The position numbers and the translations under genes were made by a program. Below are positions 23,144-63,834 of a stretch of 64,000 bases of DNA, piece by piece. The stretch lies in IMG/VR virus record IMGVR_UViG_3300021142_000014, positions 35,714 through 99,713 of that record, one strand, 5' to 3'. The DNA comes from a virus. Position 1 is the first letter of the stretch, and the number at the start of each line of letters is the position of its first letter. Below the pieces are notes generated by a model. It worked only from the letters and a program-made list of their open reading frames with translations. It was not told where the DNA came from and ran no database searches.

Positions 23144-23172
23144 ATACTACTATATTTTATAAAAAATATCAA
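23144..23172 (-). promoter_or_regulatory. SigA-type promoter giving a probable leaderless helicase mRNA
   Basis: TTGATA-N17-TAGTAT; the ATG lies 7 nt after the -10 with no SD. Confidence 0.55.
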
Positions 23173-26100
23173 TTCAGTTCGTATATATTTGTTATGTTTG
23201 ATATTCTGTTGATACTAAAAGCAGAAGGATAAAGATTTTGATTTAATTGGAAATATGGTTTACTACTAATATCTCTTCTGGAACTGACCTCATTGGTTTT
23301 ACTACTACCAACATAGTCAATATTAAGATTAGCATAATAAGCATTCTGGTCATATTGTGGTATGATACTCACCCCAGATATAAATACATTAGGATCGAGT
23401 GCAGTCATACGCACTTGAATACCACTAGCTGGTATACCAGATGCAACACTTATAAAATATTCTGGATTATTAATACCTGTAGTAATTGGATACCATGTTT
23501 GGTTTGTTTGGGTATTAGCAAACTCATAACGAACTGGGTGATAAAACGGTGCTAGCATACTTACATAGAATGGTTCGTTGTATGCAGGGTTTATTTGTTG
23601 AAGCTGCATACTAAAAGAAACATAGTTTGTAGCTGTATAGCCTTGTAACTGTATGTCAAACCAGGTATTTAGTGGTAATGTTAATGAATTATATACTTTA
23701 TACACCAATTCAGTTGTATTACCTAGAATGTCAGTAGCAAACAAACTTGCTCTATATGTTCCAAGGTTTGTTCTTGGCAAGAGTGCACGTATAACACCAC
23801 TAATTCTCATATTGCTGTGGTCTGATGGTCCAATCCAAGTTGTTGCTGGTGAACTAAAAGCACCCAATTGGTATAGAGAATAAGGAACTGCTGCACTACC
23901 ACTTATTACAAGTTGAATAATGTTGCTTGGAATGTTTTTGTTATAATTAGTTCCAGTAACTGTTGCTATGTTAATGCCAGAAGTAACCGCAAGACTGCTT
24001 CCGCTTACAGTTGTACCTGATATTACAGCATTGGTAGAAGGATTTATAAATTGTGTTTTTAGATTGATGGTTGTAGAACCAGATGCTTGTACATTGCTAA
24101 GGAAATAATAATTAAGTCCACTTGCAGGAGAATAACTACCATAACCAACAACACCAAAAGTAGGTGCACCAAATTGCACTTGCCACGTATTAATACCGCT
24201 TGCATTAACATTAGGAATGGTAAAGTTAAATGTTGCAGTGTATGCACCACCGCTAACGCTCAATCCACTAGCTGTGCCACTAAGACCCGTTGTTGGATTG
24301 TAATAATTAACAGAGGTACCAGTAATAGTTGTTCCGCTAACACCTGACCAATTAAGAATAGATCCTGAATATGGCAAGAAGTTAGCATTGTAGTAGTTGA
24401 GAAGGTTTGTACCACTAGCGTACGGCATTGATTTAATACCGTAAACAGATCCTGGAGTTCCTGATACGGAATAAATAGTACTTGTTCCCAATGTTCCATT
24501 TTTAATCAAAGTAGAGTTAATGCTCATATTTGCTAAGTTTGTAGAAGTAAGATTATTCATCAAAGTTGGGTCTGAACTAATTGTGTTCCCTTGAGTAAGA
24601 AAACTTTGCCAGTCCGTAGTAAGCCCACCAATATTAAAACTTTTAAACGAATCAATTGTTGAAAACCATGGGGTTGTTGCTGTTTGATCTACTTGAAGCA
24701 TTACATAGTTTGTATCTTGTTGTACAAAACCAGTATTAGTTCCATTGCTTGCAAGTAGATTAGATGGAAGACCTCTAAGATCATCATATACTTGCTCGTA
24801 GAATGCAGTTAAGTAACGAATTCCAGTAAAATATGCTTGGTGCCAATTTTGTTGAATGTTAATTTGATTATAATTGTGTATTCTATTATCTGGAAATCTT
24901 CTTTGAAGAAATTCAGTGTATGATTGGTAATTGTAATTACCATTAACATCAATAATTTTGTAACTAATACTTGGATCAATAATAAATGAGCTTGTAGTTG
25001 GTCCTTGCGTTGTTGTACTATTCAATTGAGAGTTGTTCAAAGATGCAAGACTTGGCCAATTATTATCATTAGCAATTGTATTAGTAGAAACACCGAGAAT
25101 TGTTGTTGAGCTTAATTGATTAGAATTCTGTGTTCGTGTTGTTAGATTGGCTCCACTATCATAAGAATATTTTACTGCGTTACCATTGATAATATTTTGT
25201 TCAATATTTGAATAAAATTGTTCTACATCATATGGGAAAACATTAATAGTTCTGTTAACTGAATCCAATGGAAGGTCATATGCTTCTGCAATTAATTTTA
25301 CAAATTCAAATTTTAAGTATGTGCAACTAGTAGTTGGTATTTCATAGATACCTTTACGCAATGTAAAATCACGTTGTATTGGAGTCCAATAAAAACTGCT
25401 TGGGTCTACGGTACCGCTGTTTGTAGAATTAATTGTGTAGTATACATTAAATTTACAATTACTATAAATAGGATCTATATATAAACGGTTAATTGTTGAT
25501 GGCGATGGATCACTTATTTTTATGTAAAAATAAACAATAGAATCTTTAACTGGTTGTGGAGCACACTTCCAATATGTTGAATCATTTACAAACATATTTG
25601 TTATATTGTTTGATGAATAAGTATAATTTTCTACAAAACCAAAACGGTTTTGAGTTATTATCGCGTTAGTACCACTGATTACGCTACTAGGTACGTCTGC
25701 TGTTGATTCAATAATAAGTTTAATACTAAAGTTTTGTAATCCTACTGAGTAAGCGACATCGGTCAACAAATTACCTGGACTGGCTGTTTGTATTTGTTTT
25801 TGGCGTGTAATGCGTATTGAAATACTTTGTGAACCAGTTAAAGGGTATGTAAAAGAACCTGTATTGGTAGATGGAGCATTATATTCAATCCTTAACCAAT
25901 TTGTAGTAGTGTAAATGTCTCCACCACCAGCTATAACAAAAGTAGAAGCACCTGGTAAATTGTTACCATTTTGGTCTAATAATTCTACGTAGCAAGGTAC
26001 ATTGAGAATATCAAAACTTATATTGTTATAATACGTTGTATTGACTAAGTTATATTGCAAAACAACTGGTTTGCTATCTGATCCACCAAAATCTGTACTG

Positions 26101-26333
26101 GAGATCCAGTTAGTTTGTGCTGCTGGATTAAAAGTAATTACATTATTTGAATTATTAGAAATTTGTAGATTAGGATCGCTATAACCAGTGTTTTGAACAT
26201 TGGATAGAGTGTCTACTACACCTGTTTGTGCATATATTTTATTATAAACAATTCCATCAACAGTAAGTGGTGGTATTACTTGTTGATCTACATAATCTTT
26301 TGATGGGTCTGTATTCTTTGGTAAAATAGCCAT
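23169..26333 (-). CDS. Large baseplate/tail structural protein (beta-sandwich domains)
   Basis: Last gene of the baseplate cluster; N/S/T-rich; start revised to ATG 26333 (MAILPKN). Confidence 0.75.
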   Translation of the reverse strand: MAILPKNTDPSKDYVDQQVIPPLTVDGIVYNKIYAQTGVVDTLSNVQNTGYSDPNLQISNNSNNVITFNPAAQTNWISSTDFGGSDSKPVVLQYNLVNTTYYNNISFDILNVPCYVELLDQNGNNLPGASTFVIAGGGDIYTTTNWLRIEYNAPSTNTGSFTYPLTGSQSISIRITRQKQIQTASPGNLLTDVAYSVGLQNFSIKLIIESTADVPSSVISGTNAIITQNRFGFVENYTYSSNNITNMFVNDSTYWKCAPQPVKDSIVYFYIKISDPSPSTINRLYIDPIYSNCKFNVYYTINSTNSGTVDPSSFYWTPIQRDFTLRKGIYEIPTTSCTYLKFEFVKLIAEAYDLPLDSVNRTINVFPYDVEQFYSNIEQNIINGNAVKYSYDSGANLTTRTQNSNQLSSTTILGVSTNTIANDNNWPSLASLNNSQLNSTTTQGPTTSSFIIDPSISYKIIDVNGNYNYQSYTEFLQRRFPDNRIHNYNQINIQQNWHQAYFTGIRYLTAFYEQVYDDLRGLPSNLLASNGTNTGFVQQDTNYVMLQVDQTATTPWFSTIDSFKSFNIGGLTTDWQSFLTQGNTISSDPTLMNNLTSTNLANMSINSTLIKNGTLGTSTIYSVSGTPGSVYGIKSMPYASGTNLLNYYNANFLPYSGSILNWSGVSGTTITGTSVNYYNPTTGLSGTASGLSVSGGAYTATFNFTIPNVNASGINTWQVQFGAPTFGVVGYGSYSPASGLNYYFLSNVQASGSTTINLKTQFINPSTNAVISGTTVSGSSLAVTSGINIATVTGTNYNKNIPSNIIQLVISGSAAVPYSLYQLGAFSSPATTWIGPSDHSNMRISGVIRALLPRTNLGTYRASLFATDILGNTTELVYKVYNSLTLPLNTWFDIQLQGYTATNYVSFSMQLQQINPAYNEPFYVSMLAPFYHPVRYEFANTQTNQTWYPITTGINNPEYFISVASGIPASGIQVRMTALDPNVFISGVSIIPQYDQNAYYANLNIDYVGSSKTNEVSSRRDISSKPYFQLNQNLYPSAFSINRISNITNIYELN

Positions 26334-26334
26334 A

Positions 26335-27297
26335 TTACTGTGCACCGTATAATGTAGATGTAACTTGTAATGAAGGAGAAGCAACACTGTTCGCTGGGAA
26401 TCCAACAGTATCAGTACTGCTTACGTAATTGATATTTCCAGTTAGGTCAATTATGATTTCTTGTGTTTGCAAGTGAGCAAAGTGAGGAGCAACATTGTTT
26501 GTTCCATTTTTTACCCAGTATCGTGTATTAGCACCTGGGTTAATAACACCAGGAGTATCTAGATTATTTGCTGTTACAGTAGTTTGAAGATTAAAATACT
26601 GCGAATATCCACCGCTAGCAGCAGTATAAGATAAAGGTACTTGTGTAAAAGTTTGTATAGGGGCACCGAAACTAATTACAAAATTAGAAAAGATTAACCT
26701 GTTGATTACATTAAGAATAATGTTTTTTGTGCCTTGGTTAAAATTAAAGAAACCAGTATTGTTTGTAGAATCCATCAATGGAATTAATACTATTTCTTGA
26801 GCTTCATTAATACCAGAAGATCCTCTTCCATACCCTGGGGTTCTCCAACTTTCTACTGCATAAAATTTTATTTGTGTTAATGCTTCGCAAAGAGTTAACA
26901 AACCCCAAAGACTTGCTCCAATTTGAAATGCTTCAGCTGCACCAAGTAATCTTTCACGATATGCAGCATCTTTGCGTATAATTTCTTGCCATTGGCTATC
27001 GGTCAATTGATCAATAAAAGGGTTGGTTGCAAAACTATATATTTCAGAAGATGCTCTTTTAACATTGAGGATAAGACCCATTATTGTGTCAAGATTGCTA
27101 AACTCTATAGTGCTTTGGCCTAACCTTGCTACAAGTTGTAGGTTGTTAAGTTGGCCTGTACCACTGTTACCTAACAATATTTTCATTAATGTAGTAAGAT
27201 TGTCACCTTCATTAAAGTTATAAATATCGTCAGGGAAGTTTTTTACTTTCTGTGGGAAAGTAGAGTGTAACTGCTGAGAAAAAACGTTACCAGCCAT
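26335..27297 (-). CDS. Baseplate wedge protein (gpI/gp7-like)
   Basis: Follows baseplate J; LD...G....R and DAAYRERL motifs. Confidence 0.7.
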   Translation of the reverse strand: MAGNVFSQQLHSTFPQKVKNFPDDIYNFNEGDNLTTLMKILLGNSGTGQLNNLQLVARLGQSTIEFSNLDTIMGLILNVKRASSEIYSFATNPFIDQLTDSQWQEIIRKDAAYRERLLGAAEAFQIGASLWGLLTLCEALTQIKFYAVESWRTPGYGRGSSGINEAQEIVLIPLMDSTNNTGFFNFNQGTKNIILNVINRLIFSNFVISFGAPIQTFTQVPLSYTAASGGYSQYFNLQTTVTANNLDTPGVINPGANTRYWVKNGTNNVAPHFAHLQTQEIIIDLTGNINYVSSTDTVGFPANSVASPSLQVTSTLYGAQ

Positions 27298-30210: not shown

Positions 30211-30242
30211 GCTATCTTAGGCAAAATAGGGCTTTTTATACA

Positions 30243-39219: not shown

Positions 39220-40203
39220 CTAGTTCTTGTTTAGTACGCGTACGTAAGGCTTCTTAACACGGCGGCTACGAATATCTACTTGAGCGAAGAACTGTCCACC
39301 TGAAAGAGTAGGTGTCGTAAGAACTGTACCTACAACATTGTTAGCAAGTGCAGAACCAGTTACAACGCCAGCAGAAGAAACTGAAGTAGTTGTAGAAGCA
39401 GGAACAGCTAGTACACCAGCGTTGCTTGTGCTAAGAACACCTACGGTTGCACCAATGGCTGTACCAGAAGCAACAACTGCCTTAGGTGTAAGACCTTCGA
39501 TCTGTACCCAAGCAAAGTTACCAGCAGGGATGTTTACTAGAGCAATTCCAGCAAATCCACCAGACTTAGTACCAACAGTAACAACGTTACCATTTACACC
39601 GCTGAGTGTTGTGTTAACACTGCTAACGTATGAAGTTCCGATTGCATCTTGCTTAACCTGGTATGAGACACCAGAAGCAGGTGAGATGTAACGGTTGTTC
39701 TCGTCTTGCCATACAGTAGCCCATCCACCAGAAATGGTTGATGCGGTACCGTTGTAAACGAGTGTGTAACGTGATTCGTCAGGACCGATTACAGTTTGGT
39801 TAGAAGCAGCACCACTCAGTGTAGCCTGAGGAGTTCCAATACCAGCACCAGCACCAGCTGTTCCACCTGCATCAAATCCTTGAGCAGCAAAACCGGCAAG
39901 GCTGACTGCGGTTACGTTAGGGCTAACCTGTGATAGGTAGCTAAAGAAGCTCTGACCACTGGCAGCAGCCATTGCGTTAACGCCAGATGAAGACTGTGCG
40001 AGAACATAGCTACCACTAGTTGTTACGGTGTCAGTGTTAACGGAAACAACGCTAATAACATTCTGACGAGCACCTAGGCTAATCTTTGAGAATGTTTCAG
40101 CGTCGACCACGTATTGCACACCTGGCAACATCTTTCTGTGATCTGGGAGGATGGCTTGACCAACTCCAGCTTGTAGTTGAATTACGAATGAACGTGCAGA
40201 CAT
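39220..40203 (-). CDS. Virion structural/decoration protein
   Basis: After tail tube; strong RBS; GIALVNIPAGNFAWVQIEG cement/decoration-like motif; SG-rich. Confidence 0.65.
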   Translation of the reverse strand: MSARSFVIQLQAGVGQAILPDHRKMLPGVQYVVDAETFSKISLGARQNVISVVSVNTDTVTTSGSYVLAQSSSGVNAMAAASGQSFFSYLSQVSPNVTAVSLAGFAAQGFDAGGTAGAGAGIGTPQATLSGAASNQTVIGPDESRYTLVYNGTASTISGGWATVWQDENNRYISPASGVSYQVKQDAIGTSYVSSVNTTLSGVNGNVVTVGTKSGGFAGIALVNIPAGNFAWVQIEGLTPKAVVASGTAIGATVGVLSTSNAGVLAVPASTTTSVSSAGVVTGSALANNVVGTVLTTPTLSGGQFFAQVDIRSRRVKKPYVRVLNKN

Positions 40204-42349: not shown

Positions 42350-43024
42350 TCAAGTGTTATTTGAGGTTTCGTTGATTGGAGCTAAAAATGGAGGTGTTTG
42401 GACCACCGGACTACCACTTGCCACAACTTTAGTAATTTGAGGAATAACGTAATCATATTTAGTCTCGTAAAAGTCACCTATACATTGGATTCTGATACTG
42501 GCTTCATAAGTTAATTCTTCTGGACTCCAAGGGGTTCCTGCGCTAACGCTATCTCCCAATGGGGTAAATGTGTCTAAAAGCAGTGTCATTCCAACTAGAT
42601 CATTATTGGTAATACTGTTAATAAAAGCAGTGCTGGCAGGGCTTCCCTGACCCATAAGAATCAAGTTAGTAATACTGTCATATAAGCGATCTCGTTCTTC
42701 TGAATGCATAGCCATTATTTGGAGATCTATACTACCTTCAAAATAACCGCTTCTTGAGACTGAAGTACCTGGATAAGTTACTCCACTAATGGTTATACCA
42801 CTTGCAACGGCTGTATATGTATCTGGGTTTAAACCTGACCATTGAATCTTGCTAGGTCTAAACTGAACAAACACTGCTGGCCATTCTACCAACTCTAACG
42901 GATACTCAATAGTTATACTATTAGGAGTTAGATCTAAACTTGTATCAACAGGAGAAGATGCTAAGGTATTAAACCCTGCATTTAAAGCTTCTACTATTGT
43001 GGTTTTAACGGCTGTGGTAAACAT
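42350..43024 (-). CDS. Tail terminator/completion protein
   Basis: Upstream of the sheath; IEYP....WPA, G.I.L...A..S.ERDRLYD. Confidence 0.7.
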   Translation of the reverse strand: MFTTAVKTTIVEALNAGFNTLASSPVDTSLDLTPNSITIEYPLELVEWPAVFVQFRPSKIQWSGLNPDTYTAVASGITISGVTYPGTSVSRSGYFEGSIDLQIMAMHSEERDRLYDSITNLILMGQGSPASTAFINSITNNDLVGMTLLLDTFTPLGDSVSAGTPWSPEELTYEASIRIQCIGDFYETKYDYVIPQITKVVASGSPVVQTPPFLAPINETSNNT

Positions 43025-47584: not shown

Positions 47585-48334
47585 TTAAATTATGTCTCCG
47601 GTAACAACCCAAACATTTTGTGAACCAATTTGATTACCAATCCATATAGCAGTTGCAGTACTGTATATTTGTCGAAGTTGTGGGTTGTTACCATTATTTA
47701 AGGAACCTGTTGAAATAATAGTTGCTCCACCAGAGAAAGTTACAGTACCACTAGTCATTTGAATAAATGTAACTTGTTGTCCATAACCAATACCACTGGC
47801 AGGCAATTGGATAGCACAATTACCACTAATTTGAACAATGTTGTTAATGTCTGTAGAATTAGCAATATACGTTGCTGCCCCATAATTAGTATCCCAAATA
47901 TATTGAACTGATCCAGCGGGAATATAATTTGACCAATATGGCGCTGAGCTAGTTCCTGAAGCACTGGAAATAAAGAATTGACCACTAGCAGTAGGTGATG
48001 GAAAATCACCATTGTTTATCTGGTTTATAATACCAAAATCAGTGATGAGCGGACCAGCAACCCATGGAACAGTTCCACTAACACCAGTAGTTACAGGGCC
48101 AAACCCACCTTCTGCTTGGCGTTGTACAATAGCAACAGTAGATGTTCCGCTGCTTGTTACATAAATGATTTCTTGTGTTCCGGTAGCACCATAATATCCT
48201 GGATTAAGTACTACTGGGACGTATGTTCCAGCCACTGGTGTAGGCCAATTAGTACCGGTAATAGTGGTTTGACCACCATTAACAATACCAGAAGCAATGC
48301 CATAGGCAAAATCTAAACGAGAACGTGTTGCCAT
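47585..48334 (-). CDS. Tail-fibre-type structural protein
   Basis: EIIYVT....V.R..EG N-terminus; C-terminal LP...GQ.V..IQ...G.VTF...L..YS.A...W.V.GD fibre-tip domain. Confidence 0.7.
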   Translation of the reverse strand: MATRSRLDFAYGIASGIVNGGQTTITGTNWPTPVAGTYVPVVLNPGYYGATGTQEIIYVTSSGTSTVAIVQRQAEGGFGPVTTGVSGTVPWVAGPLITDFGIINQINNGDFPSPTASGQFFISSASGTSSAPYWSNYIPAGSVQYIWDTNYGAATYIANSTDINNIVQISGNCAIQLPASGIGYGQQVTFIQMTSGTVTFSGGATIISTGSLNNGNNPQLRQIYSTATAIWIGNQIGSQNVWVVTGDII

Positions 48335-51406: not shown

Positions 51407-51826
51407 CTAAAGGCTGTATTTACTAATGATGCAATCTACTTCTTGTTCAATAGTTAAACCATCTTTAATTATAAAATCGACGTAATTTATTGGGTCTTGC
51501 CAAAGGGTATTAGTGTCCTCAAAACGGCTTTTTTTGATACGGTCCATCCAGATAAGAATGTCTGGTTTGCCAAAAGCCTCTCTTGCCTCTTCCGTAGGGC
51601 AAACAAAATCCACAATTATGTTATGACCTTGGCGTTCTAAAAGTCTTGCCATCTCACCAAGCCTGCGTGCTTGTTCAACCCTGTCATCGTTTGAGAACCC
51701 AAGATCTGAATTAATTGTTGCCCTAACCTCATCAGCATTCAAATGGATTACAGGTATTTTTTCTTTTAAACCATTTGCTAGAGCAGTTTTACCCGATCCA
51801 GGAAGCCCAATAATCTGGATAATCAT
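51407..51826 (-). CDS. cysC: Adenylyl-sulfate (APS) kinase, PAPS-forming
   Basis: GLPGSGKT, LNADEVR..INSDLGFS..DR.EQARR, IVDFVCP. Confidence 0.88.
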   Translation of the reverse strand: MIIQIIGLPGSGKTALANGLKEKIPVIHLNADEVRATINSDLGFSNDDRVEQARRLGEMARLLERQGHNIIVDFVCPTEEAREAFGKPDILIWMDRIKKSRFEDTNTLWQDPINYVDFIIKDGLTIEQEVDCIISKYSL

Positions 51827-52407
51827 TAATGGTAGAATTTTGTTATTGCCCAGCGCACTCCACTGATAACTGGTTCTACTTGGTGTGCATAAGGAAAGTG
51901 TGCAGGGAAAATAATTAATTGCCCTTTCTTTGGTTTAATTTTTAAATCAAATTCAACAAAATTAATTTCTCCACCTTCGTAATCATTGTTAAGATAATGT
52001 GTTAAAGAAAAAGTTCTTTTTTCAAACATAGCACCACGACCCCAGTCAATATGTGCTTTGTAATGATGACCTATTTCATATTTTAGAATTTGGTATGCAT
52101 CAGATCCGATAGTATCTGTATGGTACTTTTCACAATAATCGTCTACATATGCCTTATAAGCATTATCAAAATGTTCTCTTATACTATCTATTATTTTGTT
52201 CCTACCATCATTGGAAATACCCATAAGCTTTACTTTTCTAGCTTCTGGAATATTTATGTTTTCTCCAACATAGGAATGTGGAGCCCAATTTAGAGAACCA
52301 TTTTTAATATGCTCTTCCCATTCAGGAACCATATTGGAAATATTTTCTCCTACATTGCTATAACTTATTATTCCTGGTGCTAGTATTTCTCTTTTTATTT
52401 TATCCAC
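51826..52407 (-). CDS. 2OG-Fe(II) oxygenase, prolyl-4-hydroxylase-like
   Basis: ILKY..G.HYKAHID (HxD), R.FS...YLNNDYEGGE, FP..F.Y.H.V.PV.SG.R. Confidence 0.92.
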   Translation of the reverse strand: MDKIKREILAPGIISYSNVGENISNMVPEWEEHIKNGSLNWAPHSYVGENINIPEARKVKLMGISNDGRNKIIDSIREHFDNAYKAYVDDYCEKYHTDTIGSDAYQILKYEIGHHYKAHIDWGRGAMFEKRTFSLTHYLNNDYEGGEINFVEFDLKIKPKKGQLIIFPAHFPYAHQVEPVISGVRWAITKFYH

Positions 52408-52417
52408 AATTTACCTT

Positions 52418-53113
52418 TTATTTTTTAACTGTAACCATAAACTCAAGAGGTGATTCAAATGTTTCGCTCCACACTGAGTCATCAAGCAATGGTTCTACGT
52501 GTTTAAACATTCTGACTGGAGTAGTTGTTACTAAAACTCCACCCTTTTTTAGAAGAATAGATGATGCGGTTAAAATTTCTTTTATAACATCTAGTCCGTC
52601 TTCGCCACCAGCTACTGACGTTAAATCGTAAGGAAGAGTATCCACTTTTGAAAGATCATCTGGAATGGGTATGCATGGATAACCTGCAAGGATAAAATCG
52701 ACCTGACCATGAAGATGTTTGAGATTATCAATTGAATCCAGAGCACTACACATCACTGGAATGAATTTAGAATTGCTTTTATTTATTTGCTCTTTAAAAC
52801 CATCTGCATTCTTTGTAGTCCAAAAAAATGGCTTTTCATATTTCTCTACACCATAAATTACTGAATTGGGGAATTCTATTGCCATCGCTATGCCGAGCAT
52901 GCCTGATCCAGCACACATGTCTATTACGGTAAGGCCTTCTAATGGATTAATCTTTTCTTTTACAAAAAACAACATGTTTTCAAAAAACACATCAATTCCA
53001 TAAGCCTCTGCATAAACACCCTCACCAATGGCTATTTGCAATCCACGAAACTCGTAAAAGCCGTCATCGTATGCTTTTTGATTTAAGGGCAATTCAAATT
53101 GTTCTCTAGGCAT
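52418..53113 (-). CDS. PrmC/HemK-like SAM methyltransferase with altered NPPY motif
   Basis: F.GL...IG.GV, IDMCAGSG, DFILAGYPCIP at the NPPY position, GGEDGLDVI. Confidence 0.8.
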   Translation of the reverse strand: MPREQFELPLNQKAYDDGFYEFRGLQIAIGEGVYAEAYGIDVFFENMLFFVKEKINPLEGLTVIDMCAGSGMLGIAMAIEFPNSVIYGVEKYEKPFFWTTKNADGFKEQINKSNSKFIPVMCSALDSIDNLKHLHGQVDFILAGYPCIPIPDDLSKVDTLPYDLTSVAGGEDGLDVIKEILTASSILLKKGGVLVTTTPVRMFKHVEPLLDDSVWSETFESPLEFMVTVKK

Positions 53114-53123
53114 ATTTTGTCTC

Positions 53124-53699
53124 CTATTTTGATTCTATAGCCCACATAGGCATTATGTCCACAACTAAATTAATCCTTGGTGTTGTTCCATTGTTATCAA
53201 CTGCATGGCGTTTAACATTATTTATCTCCCAGATTTCCCCTGGCTTCATGTTTATAGTTTCGCCATCAACCCATGTTTCACATTGAGGATTAGTTATTAT
53301 CGGTATTTGATGTCTATGTACAGCACTAAAATATTGTCCAAGATCTATATGAATATAGATATTGGTTCCAGCTGGCAATAAGAAATAAAATATTTTAGCT
53401 GCTTTACCATCGCAGTCTTTTTCTAATTTATCGATTATTGGTTTAGTTAATGCCCAAAGTTCTTTATCTTTACATTCAAATTCTGGCGTGAAAGGTGCCG
53501 GATAGAACCAATTCCTGGGGTAATCCTGCACTATTAGAATTTTACCATGTTGATGGTGGGTTAGATTTAACCGTTCATCAAAGTATTTATCTTCATTCTT
53601 GCTCAACAAATAATCCGCAATTTTACCAACGTCTACGTTGCCTTTGTTAATAAAATTAAATGGATTATTGTATTTGCTCCAAACTTTAGTTAATGTCAT
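53124..53699 (-). CDS. Aspartyl/asparaginyl beta-hydroxylase-like 2OG oxygenase
   Basis: L.AG..I..HID, HR.QIPIITNP, MKPGE.WEINN...H.V.N.G...RINLVVD. Confidence 0.88.
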   Translation of the reverse strand: MTLTKVWSKYNNPFNFINKGNVDVGKIADYLLSKNEDKYFDERLNLTHHQHGKILIVQDYPRNWFYPAPFTPEFECKDKELWALTKPIIDKLEKDCDGKAAKIFYFLLPAGTNIYIHIDLGQYFSAVHRHQIPIITNPQCETWVDGETINMKPGEIWEINNVKRHAVDNNGTTPRINLVVDIMPMWAIESK

Positions 53700-54413
53700 T
53701 TAAGGCTCATAACCAAAAGTTTCAAATTCCCAAGACCATTCTTTTTGTATAGTTTCAAGTTCTTGCTTGCCAAATATATTTTTGTATGAAATGTGTTGTG
53801 GTTTGTAATCGCTTTTTGCTTTATAAGGTATTGTAATTGCTGGCAACCCAACCATTGGTAAAATTTTATTTATTTCGTTTTCTATTCCATTTTCATATCG
53901 TAAAATATGATCAACTAATATTTCACCATTTGATGAATATATCCATTTAGTACTATTAAGGGCATAAAATTCTGGTTCTCTTGCATAAAAAAAACGATAA
54001 TTTAAATAATCTTTTTGCTTTCCAGATAATGCATCCCAGTCATAACCGCCACCATATTCAAATGGATCAGCATCATTGTTTGTTTTTACTCCCCAATATT
54101 CTCTCATTTTATGAAAAAACCATGAAGTTATGATTTCATATGGGTGCCTTACAAAAACAGCAGAGATTGTATTATCTATTTTTTCTTCACCAAAAACTTT
54201 ACAGACTTCTTCATAAGAAGCATGATTCTCAAGCTGTGTATCACCATAAATAAAGTTTCTTGGTATATGGCCATATTGTGATTCATCAATAGGCATCATT
54301 GGCGTGCAGGTAGAGTTTTCTGGAACTAAATTATATAATGATAATTCTAACGAGCTGCCGCCGACTTTATAATTCTTTAACAATAAAAAGTTATTATCGG
54401 GAGAATAGATCAC
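53700..54413 (-). CDS. Sulfotransferase (family 2-like)
   Basis: 5'-PSB K..KVGGSS, 3'-PB FVRHPY....S.F, I.RYE, C-terminal E.E.FGY. Confidence 0.82.
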   Translation of the reverse strand: MIYSPDNNFLLLKNYKVGGSSLELSLYNLVPENSTCTPMMPIDESQYGHIPRNFIYGDTQLENHASYEEVCKVFGEEKIDNTISAVFVRHPYEIITSWFFHKMREYWGVKTNNDADPFEYGGGYDWDALSGKQKDYLNYRFFYAREPEFYALNSTKWIYSSNGEILVDHILRYENGIENEINKILPMVGLPAITIPYKAKSDYKPQHISYKNIFGKQELETIQKEWSWEFETFGYEP

Positions 54414-56641: not shown

Positions 56642-56881
56642 TTAACTCCTATTATTTTCTAGGCTTTCACCATCAAAATCAGTGAAAGTATCGGTAGCTA
56701 CATCATACTGAAATCCTACCGGTATGTCAAGTCCTGTTATGTTTCTTGCTATTGGCTTACTTAGTAATAAAGCTGCAAATCTCTCTGAGCATTCAATTAC
56801 TTCTTGTACAAAACCATCAAGAATAAAAGCAATCCGATACATAGGAGGCGTATTATTTAGGTCTTCTTCTTTGTTTGTCAT
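56642..56881 (-). CDS. Small fibre chaperone-like protein, paralog 2
   Basis: RIAFILDG.V.EV..C.ERFAALLLSKP...IT...G..YD. Confidence 0.7.
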   Translation of the reverse strand: MTNKEEDLNNTPPMYRIAFILDGFVQEVIECSERFAALLLSKPIARNITGLDIPVGFQYDVATDTFTDFDGESLENNRS

Positions 56882-56897
56882 GGTCTCTTTCTATTGA

Positions 56898-58049
56898 TTA
56901 TATCGCTGAGAATGGTCCTACAGTACTACCCTGGGTGGCACTTCCGCCAACCGGTGAATCAATGATACCAACACTAACATTACCAGTTGGAGCAGTCTGA
57001 TTACTAGACAAAGTTCCCAGAGATGTTACCAATGCAGAATCACTAAAGGCAGTTGCTGTAATATTGCTGTTAGTAGTAACGATTTGGATAGAGTTAATCT
57101 GAGCTGTTGTGCTATTTGAAGGTCCTTGTAGAACTCCTGTTGCAATTGTAGTGATTGTACCACCTACAGATTGTAGCAAGCTTAGCTGGTTATAGTACTG
57201 TGTTGTGTAGTTGGCTGTGTATCCAGCGCAAGCACCATATGACGAGCAAGAATACGATGTACATTGCGTAGCGTATCCTCCACAAGCTGTTCCATAACTT
57301 ATGCAGGGTGGGAAATACGGTGGAAAGAATGGTGGTGGGAAATACGGTGGAAAGAATGGTGGTGGGAAGTAAGGTGGGAAGAATGGAGGAAAGAATGGTG
57401 GAAAGAATGGTGGTGGGAAGTAAGGTGGGAAGAATGGAGGAAAGAATGGTGGAGGTGGTGGTGAGTAGCTAAGGTTGTTTGGTCTTGGAATTTCAACAGG
57501 TCGAGTATTTGGTGAATCTTCTTTTGTACGACGCTTTCGCTTAGGCAACGTTGTAGTTGCTCCCTTAGCATTTGGATCACCATAAGCACTGCTGTAACCA
57601 TAACCTGTGCAAACAGTGTAATAGCTTTGACACACTGGTCCATAGCCTGCGCATGTATAACCTGTGCAAGGATATCCACCAGTACAAGTATAGCTTGTTA
57701 TGTTATTTTGTGAGTAAGCATTGTTAACAACTGCCCACCAGTTACCAGTACTTGTCCACCAAAAAGCAATTCCAGTACCGTTTGAAGCACTCTTCAACGT
57801 CATTGTTGCGCTAGCTTTGTAAGGTATTGTAGCTAATGGGTAAGAACTAGCTGCTGTTGATGTAGTTGCTGATCCGCTTGTTGCATACCATACACCAGTT
57901 TGTGCAACCCAAAGTTGTCCACCTGGGACAGCTGTTCCTAATGATCCTGATGTTGTTCTTGCAAAAAGGTCACTAATAGGTGCTAAAGATCCTGATAGGA
58001 GCCCATAAGCACGGGCTGCAAGGTCACTTAGTGCTGAGAATAATGGCAT
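56898..58049 (-). CDS. Virion-type beta-sandwich protein with Cys-ladder stalk and Pro/Phe/Tyr-rich knob
   Basis: MP.....AARAYG N-terminus, D.F.R...SLG...W..G.W; Cys at 122,128,133,140,147 and 249,256,263,268,274; 52-residue P/F/Y tract. Confidence 0.8.
   Translation of the reverse strand: MPLFSALSDLAARAYGLLSGSLAPISDLFARTTSGSLGTAVPGGQLWVAQTGVWYATSGSATTSTAASSYPLATIPYKASATMTLKSASNGTGIAFWWTSTGNWWAVVNNAYSQNNITSYTCTGGYPCTGYTCAGYGPVCQSYYTVCTGYGYSSAYGDPNAKGATTTLPKRKRRTKEDSPNTRPVEIPRPNNLSYSPPPPPFFPPFFPPYFPPPFFPPFFPPFFPPYFPPPFFPPYFPPPFFPPYFPPCISYGTACGGYATQCTSYSCSSYGACAGYTANYTTQYYNQLSLLQSVGGTITTIATGVLQGPSNSTTAQINSIQIVTTNSNITATAFSDSALVTSLGTLSSNQTAPTGNVSVGIIDSPVGGSATQGSTVGPFSAI
57306..57461 (-). repeat. 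Coding tandem repeat for the PPFF/PPYF tract
   Basis: Two exact 27-bp units (ggtgggaaatacggtggaaagaatggt) plus a 42-bp duplication at 51-bp spacing. Confidence 0.9.
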
Positions 58050-58074
58050 TAGAAATTAATCTCCGATAATAGCA

Positions 58075-61000
58075 TTAGAACTTAGTCTGTCCGAGTAGCA
58101 TAACATACGTATTAGCTGCTGTACATATTAATGTAATAGCATAAAAGTCATAGTTTACTGTTGCATCTGCAGCAGTCCATATTGAACCACCCTGGTAATA
58201 CGCTGTTACGGTGTAAGTGTTAGTATATGCTGTTCCATGGGCAGGTAGCGTAGTACCACCGTTAACAGTGTAACCATTGATCGTAAACCCTGATGGGAGA
58301 TAGGCTGTAGAACCATTATTTGTACCAACAGTGACAGTAACGGCTTGACCAACAGTAGTTGGAGCATTGGTTATTTGGATTTGCCATGCTGATGTTGGAG
58401 CAGCAGTGTAGACATAGACTCCACCAGAAACGGTGTTGAGAACAGCAGCAGCGCTTGAAGATACTACACCAGAACTAACTACAACCTGTTCTAGAGGCGC
58501 TACTAGCAATGGGTTAGTAGCATAAGGGATAACCCCACCAGTACCAGTTGTACCGCTTACAACAGGACCTGAGACCCACTGAGAACCACTATAGATAAGC
58601 ATTGCATTGGCAGTAGGTGCACCGCTTGATACTGTGTAACCTTGTAGTTTAGTTACTTTTGCATTACCTATTGTACCAGTAAGATCTCCACCGACTGCAG
58701 AACCACTGGTCATTACAGCAGAACCACTTACGGTAACAGCTCCACTGAATGAAACGTTACCTATTTGTGTACTTGTTCCTGATACTGTAAATCCACTGGC
58801 TACAACAACGTTTCCACCACTAGTAATTGTCATTGCATCATTAGCTGCATTATTAGTTACAAAGTGTATAGCATTGTTGCCATAAGTACCAATAGCTAGA
58901 TCTGTAGAGGCTGAAGCAAGGTAAACAGCACCTGCAATGTTAAATGCACCATTACCAGTAAAGTTACTGGAGTTCATACCAAACTCACCGTAGTTAGTAC
59001 CACTTGTTCCCAAGTTATTACTTACGTTTAGGTTAGTACTTGCAGATGTACCAGAGTTGGTATTTTGAACAATAACTTGGTTATAGTTGTTAACACTATT
59101 GTTAAAACCAGCCATGATGTTAACGTCAGAGTATGAAAGTCCTCCACCGAAGTTGATTGGTGGGTTAGTAGTAGGCGTGGTAGCGTTGATTGTGTAATTA
59201 ACGTTTAGAGCACCAGAAATAGTTTCTGTACCAGTTATGCTAACGTTTCCATTAACATTGAATGGACTATTAACATTCAAAGTACCGGTAACGGTTCCTC
59301 CACTAAGTGGAAGCTTGTTAGCATCACTACCAGAAAGTGTTACTACTTGCCCTGATAAAGTTGCAATGCTGCTTGTGTTAGTAGTTACATTACCTGAAGT
59401 AGTTGCATATTGACCACTAAGGGTTGCGTATTGTCCGCTAAGGTTTGCAACATTGGTATTAGTAGTATTTAGGTTACCACTAGTTGTGTTGTATGATCCT
59501 GAAAGGGTTACAAACTGTCCAGAAAGGGTTGCAAGCGATCCACTAGTAGCAGCAATGTTACTATTTGCTGTAACCATTTGCCCTGATAGCGTTGCAATAC
59601 TGCTTGTGTTAGTAGTTACAATACCACTTGTTGATACGTACTGGCCTGAAAGAGTAGCAAGGCTACCACTAGTAGCAGCAATATTAGCATTTGCTGTAAC
59701 CATTTGACCTGATAGGGTAGAAATGCTACTTGTATTAGTGGTTACAATTCCTGAGGTTGTAGCGTATTGACCACTAAGTGTTGCAAGGTTGCTATTGGTT
59801 GTAGTTATTGAACCACTCAGTGCTAACAAGTCTCCAGAAAGATTAGTAACTTGATTTTCTGCAATTTGTATACCACTAGTTGTAATGTTGCTTATACGAC
59901 CATAGCCATCTGTAGTAATAATTGAAACATTATTGTTTGAACCATAAGTACCTGATGTACCTATAGTTGCAAGATCAATGCTATCTGGGTTAACAACAAT
60001 TCTACTTGAGTTTGCAGTGACAACATCAATTGTATTACCAGTTTTGGTAAGACCACCACCAGCATTAATTTCTCCAGCACCTGAGAATTGTGAAAATTGA
60101 ATAGTATCAGTACCAATAACAATGTCACCATTGGGACCAGTACCTGCAGAGGCCATAATATATCCATTATTAGCATTTACTGTACCGCTCTGTACGAATA
60201 TAAAATCACCAGCAGTTACTTGACCACTAATTGAATCATTGTAATCAGATGCACGAGTTAGTTTCCAAGGAATTGATGAACTACCTGTAACTGTAACTAC
60301 ATAAACACCATTTTGGGTTCCTGTAGTTTGGTCTTTAACTAGAATACGAGCACCACTAACAAATCCACTAGCTGCTATAGAATCTATTGCAAACCCAGCA
60401 TTAGTGGTTGAAGTTAGAGTAGCTCCAATGCCGTAACCACCATCTTGGTCTATTGTTCCACCACTGTATGTAGCTGTAAGGTTGCCTGTGGTTCCAGCAA
60501 ATGCAGGAGCGTGTACGTTGAGCTGTGCAACTGCAGCATCTACATATTGCTTGTTAGCTAACTCGTAAGTACCTGTAGGAAATGTTGGGTAGTAAGTAAG
60601 TCCAGAAAAAGTTGTGGTGCCTGTAAAAGTTTTAATACCACTAATAGTTTGTGTTGTTCCTAGAGTTACTGTGCTACCGCTAAGAGTAGCAAGATTAGAG
60701 TTAGTTGTATTTAAGCTACCACTAATTGAAGCAATATTTGATTCATCGGTAACTTGTTTTCCAGAGATTGTTGCTATGTTAGTTGTATTAGTAGAAATAG
60801 TTCCACTAAGTGCAGTGGAGATTGTTGGGTTAGGGTAAGTACCTTGGAGGTCACCACCGGCTGTTACGCCACTTATACTAGTAAGAACATTTATTCCACT
60901 TACAGTAAGAGTACCTGGAACATTAACATTGTGGTTGGCAGTACCTAAAACAATTTGATCTTGTGTAGAAGAAGTAGCACCAGCACCAGTGTGATCTGTA

Positions 61001-63246
61001 CCAATAGCAACAGATCCAGGTGCAGTTGCATTGGTTTGGTAACCAATTGCTGTAGCATAATTGCTACCAGTATTATTAATATTGGCTAGATAACCAATTG
61101 ATACACCAAATTCATTGTAATAATAACCGGCTTCATAACCAATAGCTACACCATCAAAATTTTGAGTAGAACCAGCATAAGCACCAATAGCTACACCATT
61201 ATTGTTACTAGATTGACCAGCATAGTTACCAATAGCTACACCAGCAGAATTGACGCTGGATATGGGAGTGTTAGCTCCTAGTGCAATATTAGTAGAATTT
61301 ACAGAAAGTGTACCAGTAACAGTTAAGTTACCAGAAATAGTACCACCTGTTCTTGGAAGAGCAGCGTAAGCTACTCCAGAAACTGTAACTAAGCTACCAC
61401 TAATTGAAGCAATATTTGATTCATCGGTAACTTGTTTTCCAGAGATTGTTGCTATGTAACTTGCTTGATTGGTAACGATACCAGAAGTGGTAGCGTATTG
61501 TCCTGAAAGCGTGGCAATGTTTGCTTCATCAGTGACTTGTTTTCCGCTTATTGTAGCTATGTAACTAGTATTATTAGTAACAATCCCTGAAGTTGTAACG
61601 TATTGACCTGATAGTGTAGCAATATTAGAAGCATCTGTAGCTTGCTTGCCAGATACACTAGCAATGTTTCCAGATATGCTAGTCATATCTGTTACTAGGT
61701 TATTTACTTGACTTTCAGCAATCTGGATTGTGTAAAGTTGTGCGTTAGTAACACGACCATTTGAATCGATAGAAAGCAATGGAGTTTGTGTAGCAGATCC
61801 ATAAGTACCACTAACACCACTAATTGTTCTAAGAGTTGGGTTAGGGTATGTCCCAGTTAAATCTCCACCAGCAGTTGTGCCAGAAAAGATTGTTCTTCCT
61901 GAAGTAGTTACAAATTGACCACTTAGAGTAACAAGAGATCCTGAGAGTGAAGCAATATTAGCTTCGTCAGTTACTTGCTTTCCACTAATAGTAGCAACAC
62001 TTCCTGATAATGTAGAGAGGTTTGAAGCGTTAGTTGAGATACCGTTATTAGCAGTGATCATTTGACCACTAAGTGTGGCAATATATCCAGTTTGGTTGGT
62101 TACAATACCTGACGTAGTATTGTATGAGCCAGAAAGTGATGCGAATTGACCACTAAGATTGGCAACATTAGAGTTAGTTGTAACTAAGTTACCTGAAAGA
62201 GTTACGTATTGACCAGAAAGTGTGGCGATGTTATTTGCTTCAGTAGCAAGAGTATTGGCTTGACCACTAACTACTACATTGAGTCCTGATATTTGTGTAT
62301 TTACACTAGCGAACCCTGAGTCTGTAGTAGTCGATAGATTATCTATTCTTGTACTTAAACCACTAACTTGAGTGTTTAAAGAATTAATGTTTGTAGTTTG
62401 ACCACTAACAGTAGAATTTAGAGTAGAAATACTTACAGATTGACCACTAGTTGTTACAAATAATGCATTGATTTGCCCACTCTGTGTATTAATTTGCCCA
62501 CTCTGTGTATTAATTTGCCCACTCTGTGTATTAATTTGCCCACTCTGTGTATTGATGTTTGTACCATTAGTGTTAATTTGGGTCTGTAAACCACTAATAG
62601 TTGTATTTAATCCACTTACTGCACTTGTTAGAATAAATATATTAATACCTGAAACATTGGTTATACGACCAGCATTATCCCATGAAAATGTTGGCAAGAA
62701 GCTTCCGCCACCACCAGAGAACGTGTCGCCAGTGTATATTGCTTTAAGTGTTGGATTAGGATAAGTACCAGCAAGGTCTCCACCAGCAGCTGTGCCTGAT
62801 ACTACTAAGGTTGAATTGCCAATTATGCTTGTTGCAAGGTTAAATTGAGCTTGTTCAATAGCTGTAGCAACAGGAAAAACATTATAATCGCTAGAAGATC
62901 CTACTGAGTGCGAAGTTGCAGTTGTTCCGTCATAGCCACGGCCATTGGTACCACTAACGTTATAAACAAAAATAGTGGTATTAACACCAAGTGAGATGGC
63001 ACCGCTAGCACACAGTATCTTTTCTTCGCTGCCTAGACCGTAATCTACAACAAGCGTAAAAGGTCCACTAGTTCCTAGTGGATTAGTGGTATTATATCCG
63101 CCTGCGCTAACTTCATACCATCCCGTGGTATTAGCTACAGTTATTGTTTGTCCGCTTGCGAATGCATAGTTAAGCGATGCTGAAAGATACGTAGGTGCAG
63201 CACCACCAGGGTATGATCGTATTACACTGGAATCTGGGAGGGCCAT
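58075..63246 (-). CDS. Long tail fibre (trimeric coiled-coil, YadA-like head repeats, GGDL.GTYPNP repeats)
   Basis: 1723 aa; heptads such as IATLSGQ; GVAIG/ATAIG/SVAIG repeats; NKQYVD; RILVKDQT..QNGVY..WKLTRA.D module. Confidence 0.88.
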   Translation of the reverse strand: MALPDSSVIRSYPGGAAPTYLSASLNYAFASGQTITVANTTGWYEVSAGGYNTTNPLGTSGPFTLVVDYGLGSEEKILCASGAISLGVNTTIFVYNVSGTNGRGYDGTTATSHSVGSSSDYNVFPVATAIEQAQFNLATSIIGNSTLVVSGTAAGGDLAGTYPNPTLKAIYTGDTFSGGGGSFLPTFSWDNAGRITNVSGINIFILTSAVSGLNTTISGLQTQINTNGTNINTQSGQINTQSGQINTQSGQINTQSGQINALFVTTSGQSVSISTLNSTVSGQTTNINSLNTQVSGLSTRIDNLSTTTDSGFASVNTQISGLNVVVSGQANTLATEANNIATLSGQYVTLSGNLVTTNSNVANLSGQFASLSGSYNTTSGIVTNQTGYIATLSGQMITANNGISTNASNLSTLSGSVATISGKQVTDEANIASLSGSLVTLSGQFVTTSGRTIFSGTTAGGDLTGTYPNPTLRTISGVSGTYGSATQTPLLSIDSNGRVTNAQLYTIQIAESQVNNLVTDMTSISGNIASVSGKQATDASNIATLSGQYVTTSGIVTNNTSYIATISGKQVTDEANIATLSGQYATTSGIVTNQASYIATISGKQVTDESNIASISGSLVTVSGVAYAALPRTGGTISGNLTVTGTLSVNSTNIALGANTPISSVNSAGVAIGNYAGQSSNNNGVAIGAYAGSTQNFDGVAIGYEAGYYYNEFGVSIGYLANINNTGSNYATAIGYQTNATAPGSVAIGTDHTGAGATSSTQDQIVLGTANHNVNVPGTLTVSGINVLTSISGVTAGGDLQGTYPNPTISTALSGTISTNTTNIATISGKQVTDESNIASISGSLNTTNSNLATLSGSTVTLGTTQTISGIKTFTGTTTFSGLTYYPTFPTGTYELANKQYVDAAVAQLNVHAPAFAGTTGNLTATYSGGTIDQDGGYGIGATLTSTTNAGFAIDSIAASGFVSGARILVKDQTTGTQNGVYVVTVTGSSSIPWKLTRASDYNDSISGQVTAGDFIFVQSGTVNANNGYIMASAGTGPNGDIVIGTDTIQFSQFSGAGEINAGGGLTKTGNTIDVVTANSSRIVVNPDSIDLATIGTSGTYGSNNNVSIITTDGYGRISNITTSGIQIAENQVTNLSGDLLALSGSITTTNSNLATLSGQYATTSGIVTTNTSSISTLSGQMVTANANIAATSGSLATLSGQYVSTSGIVTTNTSSIATLSGQMVTANSNIAATSGSLATLSGQFVTLSGSYNTTSGNLNTTNTNVANLSGQYATLSGQYATTSGNVTTNTSSIATLSGQVVTLSGSDANKLPLSGGTVTGTLNVNSPFNVNGNVSITGTETISGALNVNYTINATTPTTNPPINFGGGLSYSDVNIMAGFNNSVNNYNQVIVQNTNSGTSASTNLNVSNNLGTSGTNYGEFGMNSSNFTGNGAFNIAGAVYLASASTDLAIGTYGNNAIHFVTNNAANDAMTITSGGNVVVASGFTVSGTSTQIGNVSFSGAVTVSGSAVMTSGSAVGGDLTGTIGNAKVTKLQGYTVSSGAPTANAMLIYSGSQWVSGPVVSGTTGTGGVIPYATNPLLVAPLEQVVVSSGVVSSSAAAVLNTVSGGVYVYTAAPTSAWQIQITNAPTTVGQAVTVTVGTNNGSTAYLPSGFTINGYTVNGGTTLPAHGTAYTNTYTVTAYYQGGSIWTAADATVNYDFYAITLICTAANTYVMLLGQTKF
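60712..61457. repeat. Exact 68-bp direct repeats (60712-60779 and 61390-61457) flanking the YadA-like module
   Basis: taagctaccactaattgaagc...agagattgttgctatgt identical in both copies; offset 678 bp, in frame. Confidence 0.9.
62471..62553. repeat. 21-bp coding tandem repeat x4 (INTQSGQ heptads)
   Basis: atttgcccactctgtgtatta repeated four times without spacers. Confidence 0.95.
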
Positions 63247-63294
63247 TAAATAATACTCCTATTAATTGTTTATCTACCTGTTACTGATTACTAA

Positions 63295-63834
63295 TTAGTA
63301 TGGGTAAGAAGCAGATTGCCAAGTAGGAGTAACAGTTAGTGAGTCGCCTGAAGCTAGAGTTACGGTTGAAAGATCAGAGAATGGTGCGTACCATAGAACT
63401 GTACTTCCGCCTGAGCTACTTGATCCTACAGTACCAGTGATGGTAAGGAAGATACCGTTGATAGTAGTGTATGTAGCACCAGTGTTTGTGAATGTAAGAG
63501 GGTTAGTTCCTGAGTAAGTACAGTATTGTACAGGAATTCCTGTGCTTGTACCAATTGTAATTGTGTTAGTCTGTGGTGCTTGCCAACCAGATCCAGAAAG
63601 AGTTAGACGTGAATAACCACTGAGACCACTAGCTTCAAGAATTGGGTAAGTACCACCATTGAGGGTAAGAGGAACATCACCTGCAGCAGCGTATCCACTA
63701 ATGGTTGACCAAGTAGTGGCTGTAAGACCTAGATAAAGTGTAGAAGGAACGGCCTGTGTTCCTCTTGGAATTGCGTTCAAAAGGTAGTTAAGACCTTCCT
63801 GAGGAAAATAAAAATTAGAGTTAAAACTAGCCAT
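63295..63834 (-). CDS. Minor tail/fibre-associated structural protein
   Basis: EGL..LL, LYLGL, E.SG..GY.R, TFT, I.G.FL, L.SGD.L.VT pattern. Confidence 0.7.
   Translation of the reverse strand: MASFNSNFYFPQEGLNYLLNAIPRGTQAVPSTLYLGLTATTWSTISGYAAAGDVPLTLNGGTYPILEASGLSGYSRLTLSGSGWQAPQTNTITIGTSTGIPVQYCTYSGTNPLTFTNTGATYTTINGIFLTITGTVGSSSSGGSTVLWYAPFSDLSTVTLASGDSLTVTPTWQSASYPY

Follow-up and report, generated by a model that had tools for sequence, protein, structure and literature searches.

A lineage-wide Ser-Gly excess in tail, baseplate and fibre proteins of freshwater phages: a candidate O-glycosylation tag

Ser-Gly is the dipeptide to which glycosaminoglycans are attached in animal proteoglycans, where it is read by xylosyltransferase. 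GtfA/GtfB of the accessory Sec system, a GT4-family O-GlcNAc transferase, acts in the cytoplasm on Ser of charge-poor, Ser-rich repeat adhesins. Another cytoplasmic enzyme, TibC, hyper-glycosylates repetitive adhesins on Ser only, and one mapped site reads N-S-G-G (PMC4358343). Among phages, PMC12363180 cites Freeman et al. 2023 for virion glycosylation by phage-encoded glycosyltransferases in Che8, Corndog, and Myrna; by the account cited in PMC12619734, these mycobacteriophage glycans sit on capsid and tail-tube subunits, at their C-termini. Here, we analyze a 64,000-nucleotide stretch of viral DNA (the window), which is the last 64 kb of the 99.7-kb IMG/VR record IMGVR_UViG_3300021142_000014 (completeness estimate 69%). 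Its contractile-tail virion module (23169-63834) encodes proteins unusually rich in Ser-Gly (SG). We find that this excess is real and lineage-wide, is selected at the protein level, and forms a motif on peripheral domains of tail, baseplate, and fibre proteins.

An earlier note on this DNA had counted SG and Gly-Ser (GS) by hand, and our recount reproduced every one of its figures. We write counts as observed vs expected and their ratio as O/E. The 1723-amino-acid (aa) fibre contains 95 SG vs 27.4 (25 GS; shuffle z 14.9), baseplate J 31 vs 7.7 (z 9.3), a 1078-aa minor tail protein 22 vs 7.7 (z 5.6), and the sheath 11 vs 4.9. The SG/GS counts of the 327-, 249-, and 179-aa proteins are 10/2, 9/3, and 8/3. 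Pooling 21 charge-poor virion proteins, we obtain 243 SG vs 110 (O/E 2.2), which makes SG the top outlier among the 400 dipeptides, at ~12.7 standard deviations above expectation; leaving out the fibre, the pool gives 148 vs 82.6. The other dipeptides of the pool behave differently: O/E is 1.01 for GS, 1.00 for Thr-Gly (TG), 1.12 for Ala-Gly, and 0.72 for Asn-Gly (NG), the last being under-represented (0.64-0.72). AGY and TCN codons both encode the Ser of SG, each at close to its background share; therefore, selection acts on the protein and not on the DNA, and a motif at the DNA level was rejected.

The bias is missing from buried or non-virion proteins, as the earlier note had proposed: SG occurs 0 times in the tube, 4 in the tape measure, 5 in the hub, and 3 in DnaE, and 35 non-virion proteins give an O/E of 0.82. 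Its statement that the SG-rich proteins are nearly devoid of charge also holds, since charged residues make up 3-10% of the SG-rich or charge-poor virion proteins vs 23-32% of the replication proteins. Its picture of SG spread over the exposed virion proteins in general stands only in part. Eight proteins hold nearly all the excess (191 vs 60), with Ser preceding 37.5% of their Gly, and the remaining thirteen of the 21 charge-poor virion proteins total 52 vs 50. Three probably exposed, charge-poor proteins of 825, 383, and 432 aa show no excess (17 vs 15.7, 3 vs 4.2, and 12 vs 8.3), and the major capsid protein, known from relatives, has 2 vs 1.0. The eight SG-rich proteins show zero BLAST similarity to one another at E 0.01, and common ancestry was rejected as the origin of their shared bias.

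Within the SG-rich proteins, the excess is confined to particular domains. The J insertion (residues 231-680) has 28 SG vs 4.9, and 28 of its 41 Gly (68%) directly follow Ser. The conserved ends of J are at expectation, and the equally charge-poor segment 681-822 has 1 vs 1.1. Similarly, residues 1-300 of the sheath have 11 vs 3.4, all within 16-292, and the C-terminal core (301-521) has 0 vs 1.5 at the same 4.5% charge. The C-terminal part of the 1078-aa protein (641-1078) has 19 vs 4.6, with Ser before 53% of the Gly, while its N-terminal part has 3 vs 3.3. The heptad blocks of the fibre (residues 201-640, 791-880, and 1126-1310) together hold 61 SG, and in one block all 18 of 18 Gly are preceded by Ser. 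The C-terminal part of the fibre has 17 vs 5.5, and a beta block resembling the YadA head (641-790) has 1 vs 2.2.

The heptad placement of the fibre SG that had been described earlier was borne out, as 54% of the SG-SG spacings are multiples of 7. AlphaFold2 (AF2) predicts a single long helix for fibre residues 207-352, with 14 SG inside and a predicted local distance difference test (pLDDT) score of 70-88 over most of it; coiled-coil families match the fibre below the Pfam thresholds. In the sheath, 8 of 11 SG lie in predicted coil, in a low-confidence AF2 model (mean pLDDT 58.7). By these models, the enrichment of SG extends over helical and beta or coil settings alike. Outside the fibre, Thr at -2 is enriched 2.5-fold (p 2e-6), Ala at -1 is enriched 3.7-fold, and Thr, Ile, or Val follows the Gly, so that the overall context reads T-aliphatic-S-G-T/I/V. 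Ser without a following Gly has no flank context, and the less frequent TG sites have the same flanks as SG. Gln comes next after 23 of the 95 fibre SG, 5.8 times as often as expected.

The fibre also shows repeats of other kinds. The motif G-G-D-L-x-G-T-Y-P-N-P-T recurs 4-5 times along the fibre, where heptad blocks meet small globular inserts. Repeats of the form AIGY or SIGY, encoded at 60877-61326, make up the beta block 641-790 and match YadA_head at 22.3 bits vs a cut-off of 25. Together with the heptad blocks, this block gives the fibre a layout like that of trimeric autotransporters.

We followed the excess through forty-odd related IMG/VR loci and 103 clusters of J proteins at 34-94% identity, and every one of them retains it. 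All 103 J clusters are SG-enriched (O/E 1.4-3.8). Clusters above 49% identity have a median SG O/E of 2.95 and those at 34-40% a median of 2.41; the corresponding GS values are 0.84 and 1.36, and charge is 6.4%. Aligning 13 J orthologs, we find SG in 88 columns: 2 of these are universal, 22 are shared by half or more of the sequences, and 42 have SG in a single sequence. Conservation is 0.58 for the Ser of SG vs 0.47 for other Ser, and 0.70 for the Gly of SG vs 0.76 for other Gly. Even fibre homologs of 40% identity retain the heptad SG as a component of the repeat. Mean SG counts are 11.9 vs 4.8 in 25 sheath orthologs, 8.4 vs 4.6 in 26 orthologs of the 327-aa protein, 10.0 vs 3.7 in orthologs of the 249-aa protein, and 4.6 vs 1.6 in those of the 224-aa protein. 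In the close relative G007, two more small SG-rich proteins (8 vs 1.9 and 7 vs 2.2) are encoded upstream of the homolog of the 179-aa protein. Of the head proteins of this relative (L054:3673-5229), the cement protein (PF23968) has ~10% charge and 2-5 SG vs ~1. The major head protein (phrog_2522) is 24% charged; thus, charge depletion spares the capsid shell itself.

The 179-aa protein (63295-63834) is 100% identical in G007 (L054:7692-8231), while the adjoining fibres (1723 vs 1997 aa) share 76% identity over their best local BLASTP alignment (759 residues). The identical neighbor beside fibres of differing sequence and length suggests recent mosaic exchange within the fibre gene.

The sugar genes of the window lie outside the tail module (Table 1). 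The GT4-family protein scores 43.2 bits against PF00534 (cut-off 26.4), and E305 and E313 of its EX7E motif are invariant in an alignment that includes phage TJE1. It is present in 17 of 17 related records covering the region, at 64-83% identity, and is the sole sugar enzyme found in every one; the GT2-like protein is found in 12 and the GT17-family protein in 10 of the 17. The closest solved relative of GT4 is chlorovirus B736L (E 2e-5). Its top tblastn match among 50,697 phage records is Tetrasphaera phage TJE1 (38%), and Mycobacterium phages were not among the matches of GT4 and GT17 in these records. Scanning the sugar region, the accessory island described below, and most virion-module proteins with Pfam and NCBIfam profiles, we found only the GT2, GT4, and GT17 families; neither BAHT nor a xylosyltransferase-type family was detected in these scans. 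In-frame stops occur in some conserved sugar genes of relatives, namely one TAG in GT4 (G003), one TAG in the GT2-like gene (G001), and one TGA in GT17 (G010), which could be pseudogenes, assembly errors, or recoding.

Three relatives separate these enzymes. G011 (89% complete) and G012 (82%) have GT4 only, G015 has GT4 and the GT2-like gene, and all three are without GT17, sulfotransferase, and adenosine 5'-phosphosulfate (APS) kinase. Their fibres have 64 SG vs 22.7, 90 vs 23.7, and 69 vs 16.4, respectively, and their J proteins are as SG-rich as that of the window. The link to the GT2 and GT17 genes drawn in the earlier note thus breaks down, because fibres of relatives without them are equally SG-rich. 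Since the SG excess is kept, sulfation, GT17, and GT2 are not tied to SG, and only GT4 could be. As GT4 is universal, the lineage offers no comparison of members with and without it.

Our first-ranked reading, which we hold tentatively, is that SG serves as an O-glycosylation acceptor tag read by the conserved GT4. The Ser of (T)-aliphatic-S-G would be the acceptor, and the soluble GT4 (18197-19480) would read SG in the host cytoplasm. The GT2-like protein, GT17, and the methyltransferase, where present, may extend or trim the glycan, and surfaces otherwise free of charge would thereby gain a coat of neutral sugars. We infer the sugar attachment, GT4 as the enzyme, and SG as the recognised tag from features that are observed: the excess, its specificity for Ser and for direction, its restriction to domains, its conservation with turnover, and the universal, intact GT4. 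We favor this reading because SG is the only strong dipeptide outlier, with GS and TG at expectation and both Ser codon families in use. Eight proteins without mutual BLAST similarity share the excess, equally charge-poor domains are without it, and SG has the same flanks in helix and in beta or coil, all of which argue in the same direction. So does the behavior of the J proteins, in which 103 of 103 clusters keep the excess while the sites turn over. The presence of GT4 in 17 of 17 records with an invariant EX7E speaks for it as well. So does a negative search of 5 records for a thymidylate-synthase-like gene of the kind that serves hydroxymethyl-base DNA, though these records are incomplete and other routes to such DNA exist. 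Lastly, there are precedents in TibC (PMC4358343) and, as far as the account in PMC12363180 goes, in Che8, Corndog, and Myrna. Taken to its full extent, the reading describes a widespread lineage of freshwater, probably actinobacterial myoviruses that would carry dense O-glycan on the outer domains of tail, baseplate, and fibre, laid down by one GT4 on hundreds of SG tags whose number is selected while the sites shift; we regard this wider picture as possible and still somewhat doubtful.

Unrelated phages set a baseline. In 575 open reading frames (ORFs) of such phages, SG O/E is 1.18 above 20% charge and 1.4-2.0 at low charge, and some low-charge ORFs of other lineages are at expectation (8 vs 7.4, 4 vs 4.1), so that charge depletion alone does not predict an SG excess. 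phiC31 has 30 SG vs 25.3. TJE1, the bearer of the GT4 homolog, has 36 vs ~20 in its low-charge structural proteins, within the range set by lambda. A mild SG preference, 1.2-1.7-fold in ordinary phage structural proteins, is thus normal; the 3-6-fold domain values of this lineage are not. The Myrna counterparts of J (2 vs 3.5), sheath (2 vs 1.9), and minor tail protein (4 vs 5.5) are not enriched, and on this ground SG as an intrinsic feature of these folds was rejected; only a few SG sites of the window could be aligned to Myrna residues. A GT2-like/GT4 cassette also lies directly upstream of terminase in a lineage of 36-kb siphoviruses (L086, L088-L090, L117; G021-G024), one record of which has direct terminal repeats. 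In the loci examined in detail, its identity to the window is 38-42% for the GT2-like protein and 46-51% for GT4, and the cassette seems to travel among unrelated lineages of phages.

Several of these results weigh against a GT4-read tag. Myrna, which is reported to be glycosylated and has the same tail-gene order, has 73 SG vs 68 and 83 GS at ordinary charge; therefore, an SG excess does not mark glycosylated phages in general. Lambda has no glycosyltransferase and shows 47 vs 27.9 (1.7-fold), so SG is mildly favored in phage structural proteins anyway. Only 1 of 18 cassette-bearing siphovirus loci (G021) has an SG excess, and the pooled siphovirus O/E is ~1.45 with the cassette (18 loci) and 1.28 without it (six loci), although this cross-lineage test is weak because the siphovirus enzymes are only ~50% identical where aligned. 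Across lineages, the cassette alone does not predict an SG excess. In the fibre, 61 of the 95 SG lie in duplicated heptad units and so are not independent events. The major capsid protein shares neither the low charge nor the SG richness. Finally, GT4 could act on another substrate, such as the host envelope or DNA.

The explanation that we rank second, and that is almost as likely, needs nothing attached to the Ser. It takes SG as a structural or compositional motif of exposed domains that were rebuilt as nearly uncharged, Ser/Thr/Asn/Gly-rich surfaces. The polar position before Gly, which in ordinary phage proteins is occupied by Asp, Glu, Lys, Arg, or Ser, would be filled by Ser, since Thr is beta-branched and the Asn-Gly pair chemically labile; the fibre SG would be fixed within a heptad unit and multiplied by duplication. 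Consistent with this, Ser and charged residues together precede 36% of the Gly in the structural proteins of lambda, 32% in those of phiC31, and 24% in those of Myrna; in the present proteins, Ser reaches 37.5% by itself, with 3.3% for charged residues. Such replacement would account for a large share of the pooled excess, and the heptads are explained by duplication, their SG being retained as part of the repeat in distant fibres. The lambda excess, the rise of SG O/E with falling charge in the 575 ORFs, the scarcity of NG, and the coil positions predicted for most sheath SG all fit. The sole SG-rich case among the siphovirus cassette loci fits too, since the SG-rich proteins of G021 (27 vs 7.6, 13 vs 4.7, and 17 vs 7.2) are also its charge-poor ones. 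However, the Ser-before-Gly fractions in the non-repetitive J insertion and C-terminal part of the 1078-aa protein, and in the one heptad block, lie well above the 24-36% that replacement would give, and equally charge-poor proteins and domains are without the excess. The Gly of SG is no better conserved than other Gly and the sites turn over fast, unlike obligatory turns, and the Gly that recurs with every heptad of the predicted helix does not mark a turn. A further, improbable alternative is another modification or interaction: a host enzyme may act on SG, or, in the closest clade, a PrmC-like methyltransferase may methylate the Gln of S-G-Q; in a variant, SG could lower capture by proteases or particles in lake water. 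The failure of both charge depletion and the glycosyltransferase cassette to predict the excess leaves room for it. A PrmC/HemK-family methyltransferase (52418-53113; NCBIfam TIGR03534, E 6e-16, under the cut-off) is indeed encoded in the accessory island, and the fibre S-G-Q resembles the G-G-Q target of PrmC. Yet the island is in only 6 of 20 records, most relatives keep S-G-Q without it, and S-G-Q heptads occur in all fibres; outside the fibre, Thr, Ile, or Val and not Gln follows SG, and nothing points to a specific host enzyme.

The explanation given in the earlier note was a dense, sulfated, proteoglycan-like glycan that would cover the entire outside of the virion and be the joint product of GT2, GT4, GT17, methyltransferase, sulfotransferase, and APS kinase. 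All of these gene families are present in the window, and the dipeptide is that of animal glycosaminoglycan attachment; even so, we consider this model very improbable. Of 20 related records, only 6 have the sulfotransferase and APS kinase, and these 6 belong to the closest clade. Among the 14 without them are records with completeness estimates of 82-89% whose fibres are as SG-rich; the expected co-occurrence of sulfotransferase and SG enrichment is therefore not seen, and a link of the excess to the sulfation island was rejected. The island is an accessory of one sub-clade and stands outside the SG system. Its sulfotransferase matches PF03567 over the whole profile but at 20.7 bits vs a cut-off of 22. 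The APS-kinase-like protein (51407-51826) scores 65.6 bits in Pfam (cut-off 21.1), covering only profile positions 4-91 of 152, and 66.7 bits against NCBIfam apsK, under the cut-off of 138.7. It is short (139 aa as called, within a 175-aa open frame in relatives), with the P-loop half only, and may be a kinase of other specificity. The SG flanks are not acidic, the scans found no xylosyltransferase-type family, and the major capsid is not SG-rich. What remains of the proposed glycan coat is the possibility of an SG tag read by a glycosyltransferase, given the universal GT4; the sulfated shield over the whole exterior is contradicted lineage-wide.

All genes of the window are on the minus strand. 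In transcription order, the module runs from the 179-aa protein, the fibre, and the 383-aa protein through a seven-gene modification island to proteins of 739, 163, 249, and 825 aa, four small proteins, the sheath, and the tube. After the tube come the 327-aa protein, two chaperones, the tape measure, the hub, a collar-domain protein, baseplate J, a DUF7297 protein, and the 1078-aa minor tail protein. From sheath to minor tail protein, the order is that of mycobacteriophage Myrna. The head genes lie past the contig end; in G007, they are a protease, the cement protein, and the major head protein, followed by three small SG-rich proteins and then the fibre. The sheath scores 27.6 bits against PF17482 (cut-off 26.9), and Foldseek matches its AF2 model to the phage 812, AFP, and pyocin sheaths (E down to 3e-7), with the same low mean pLDDT noted above. 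It is 25-30% identical to sheaths of cluster C and Gordonia phages, and its gene was detected in ~20 freshwater metagenome runs. Sequence searches of the PDB with the sheath and the 288- and 739-aa proteins gave zero matches. The label of decoration protein that the 327-aa protein had received earlier is unverified; its gene sits between those of the tube and the tail chaperones. The reading frame of the 1078-aa protein (23169-26405) is listed from TTG, and the true start is probably a Met 24 codons downstream (codon 25, M-A-I-L-P-K...). The phage is an uncultured freshwater myovirus of ~130-138 kb with a probably actinobacterial host, the latter because the window encodes an Rpf-like transglycosylase and a GT4 whose best cultured match is from Tetrasphaera phage TJE1.

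Table 1. Features of the window discussed in the text, with coordinates and strand
Feature	Coordinates	Strand	Evidence or remarks
179-aa charge-poor protein, upstream of fibre	63295..63834	-	SG 8 vs 2.7
1723-aa fibre	58075..63246	-	coiled-coil heptad blocks, YadA-head-like block, C-terminal beta-rich part
accessory island	51407..54413	-	short APS-kinase-like P-loop protein, 2-oxoglutarate-Fe(II) oxygenase, PrmC/HemK-like methyltransferase, Asp/Asn beta-hydroxylase-like protein, weak sulfotransferase match
249-aa charge-poor virion protein	47585..48334	-	SG 9 vs 3.3
224-aa protein (phrog_2748), just upstream of sheath	42350..43024	-	SG 5 vs 1.5
tail sheath, 521 aa	40716..42281	-	Pfam Phage_sheath_1C, Foldseek fold matches, AF2
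327-aa charge-poor protein	39220..40203	-	SG 10 vs 4.8, GS 2
baseplate J-like protein, 822 aa	27297..29765	-	Pfam Baseplate_J
minor tail protein (phrog_2840), 1078 aa	23169..26405	-	SG 22 vs 7.7
GT2-like protein, 231 aa	19465..20160	-	weak family match
GT4-family glycosyltransferase, 427 aa	18197..19480	-	Pfam Glycos_transf_1
GT17-family glycosyltransferase, 257 aa	17424..18197	-	family match
class I S-adenosylmethionine methyltransferase, adjoins glycosyltransferase genes	16880..17506	-	Methyltransf_24 / O-methyltransferase-like

If the tag reading is true, virion glycosylation would be common in abundant lake phages, beyond a few mycobacteriophages, and a sequon readable from sequence would make glycosylated virions predictable from metagenomes. 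The lineage would then offer a soluble, Ser-directed GT4 of potential use in glycoengineering, and a phage counterpart of the viral glycan shield that is written into the protein sequence. If the structural explanation is true, the excess would provide a clear rule for building nearly charge-free protein surfaces, and a warning against taking a dipeptide excess beside glycosyltransferase genes for a sequon. In both cases, the control phages provide the baseline of 1.2-1.7-fold for SG in ordinary phage structural proteins.

Compared with the described systems, the sites share with animal proteoglycans the dipeptide itself and the use of Ser rather than Thr. However, animal glycosaminoglycan sites are acidic-flanked, whereas here Thr and Ala, Ile, Val, or Leu precede and Thr, Ile, or Val follows, in nearly charge-free proteins of a phage in which no xylosyltransferase-type family was found by the scans; the proteoglycan-like sites envisaged in the earlier note are thus not what we see. 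The fibre is like YadA-type trimeric autotransporter adhesins in that heptad coiled-coil blocks alternate with an AIGY/SIGY beta block, although the YadA_head match is sub-threshold. To our knowledge, the known adhesin stalks do not carry SG at the e/f positions of nearly every heptad. The window GT4 is far from GtfA, scoring 15.1 bits against its model TIGR02918 (cut-off 574.6), and it has neither a GtfB partner nor accessory Sec genes.

With Che8, Corndog, and Myrna, the phage shares a tailed virion, a probably actinobacterial host, its own soluble glycosyltransferases, and, with Myrna, the tail order. It differs from what the account cited in PMC12619734 gives for them in that its tube has 0 SG, its capsid is unenriched, and its candidate sites are hundreds of internal SG; its GT4 and GT17 are also without a mycobacteriophage match in the phage records searched. 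With TibC and AAH, acting on TibA and AIDA-I (PMC4358343), the shared idea is a soluble cytoplasmic enzyme that puts sugars on many Ser of a long repetitive fibre. TibC and AAH differ in being iron-containing, dodecameric heptosyltransferases and not GT4 enzymes, and their substrate is a beta-helix of 19-residue repeats; the window, unlike these systems, has no visible heptose pathway. The analogy is functional only. Within this limit, TibC/AAH would be the closest working analogy to the proposed GT4 and its SG tags, a resemblance in operation and not in family membership.

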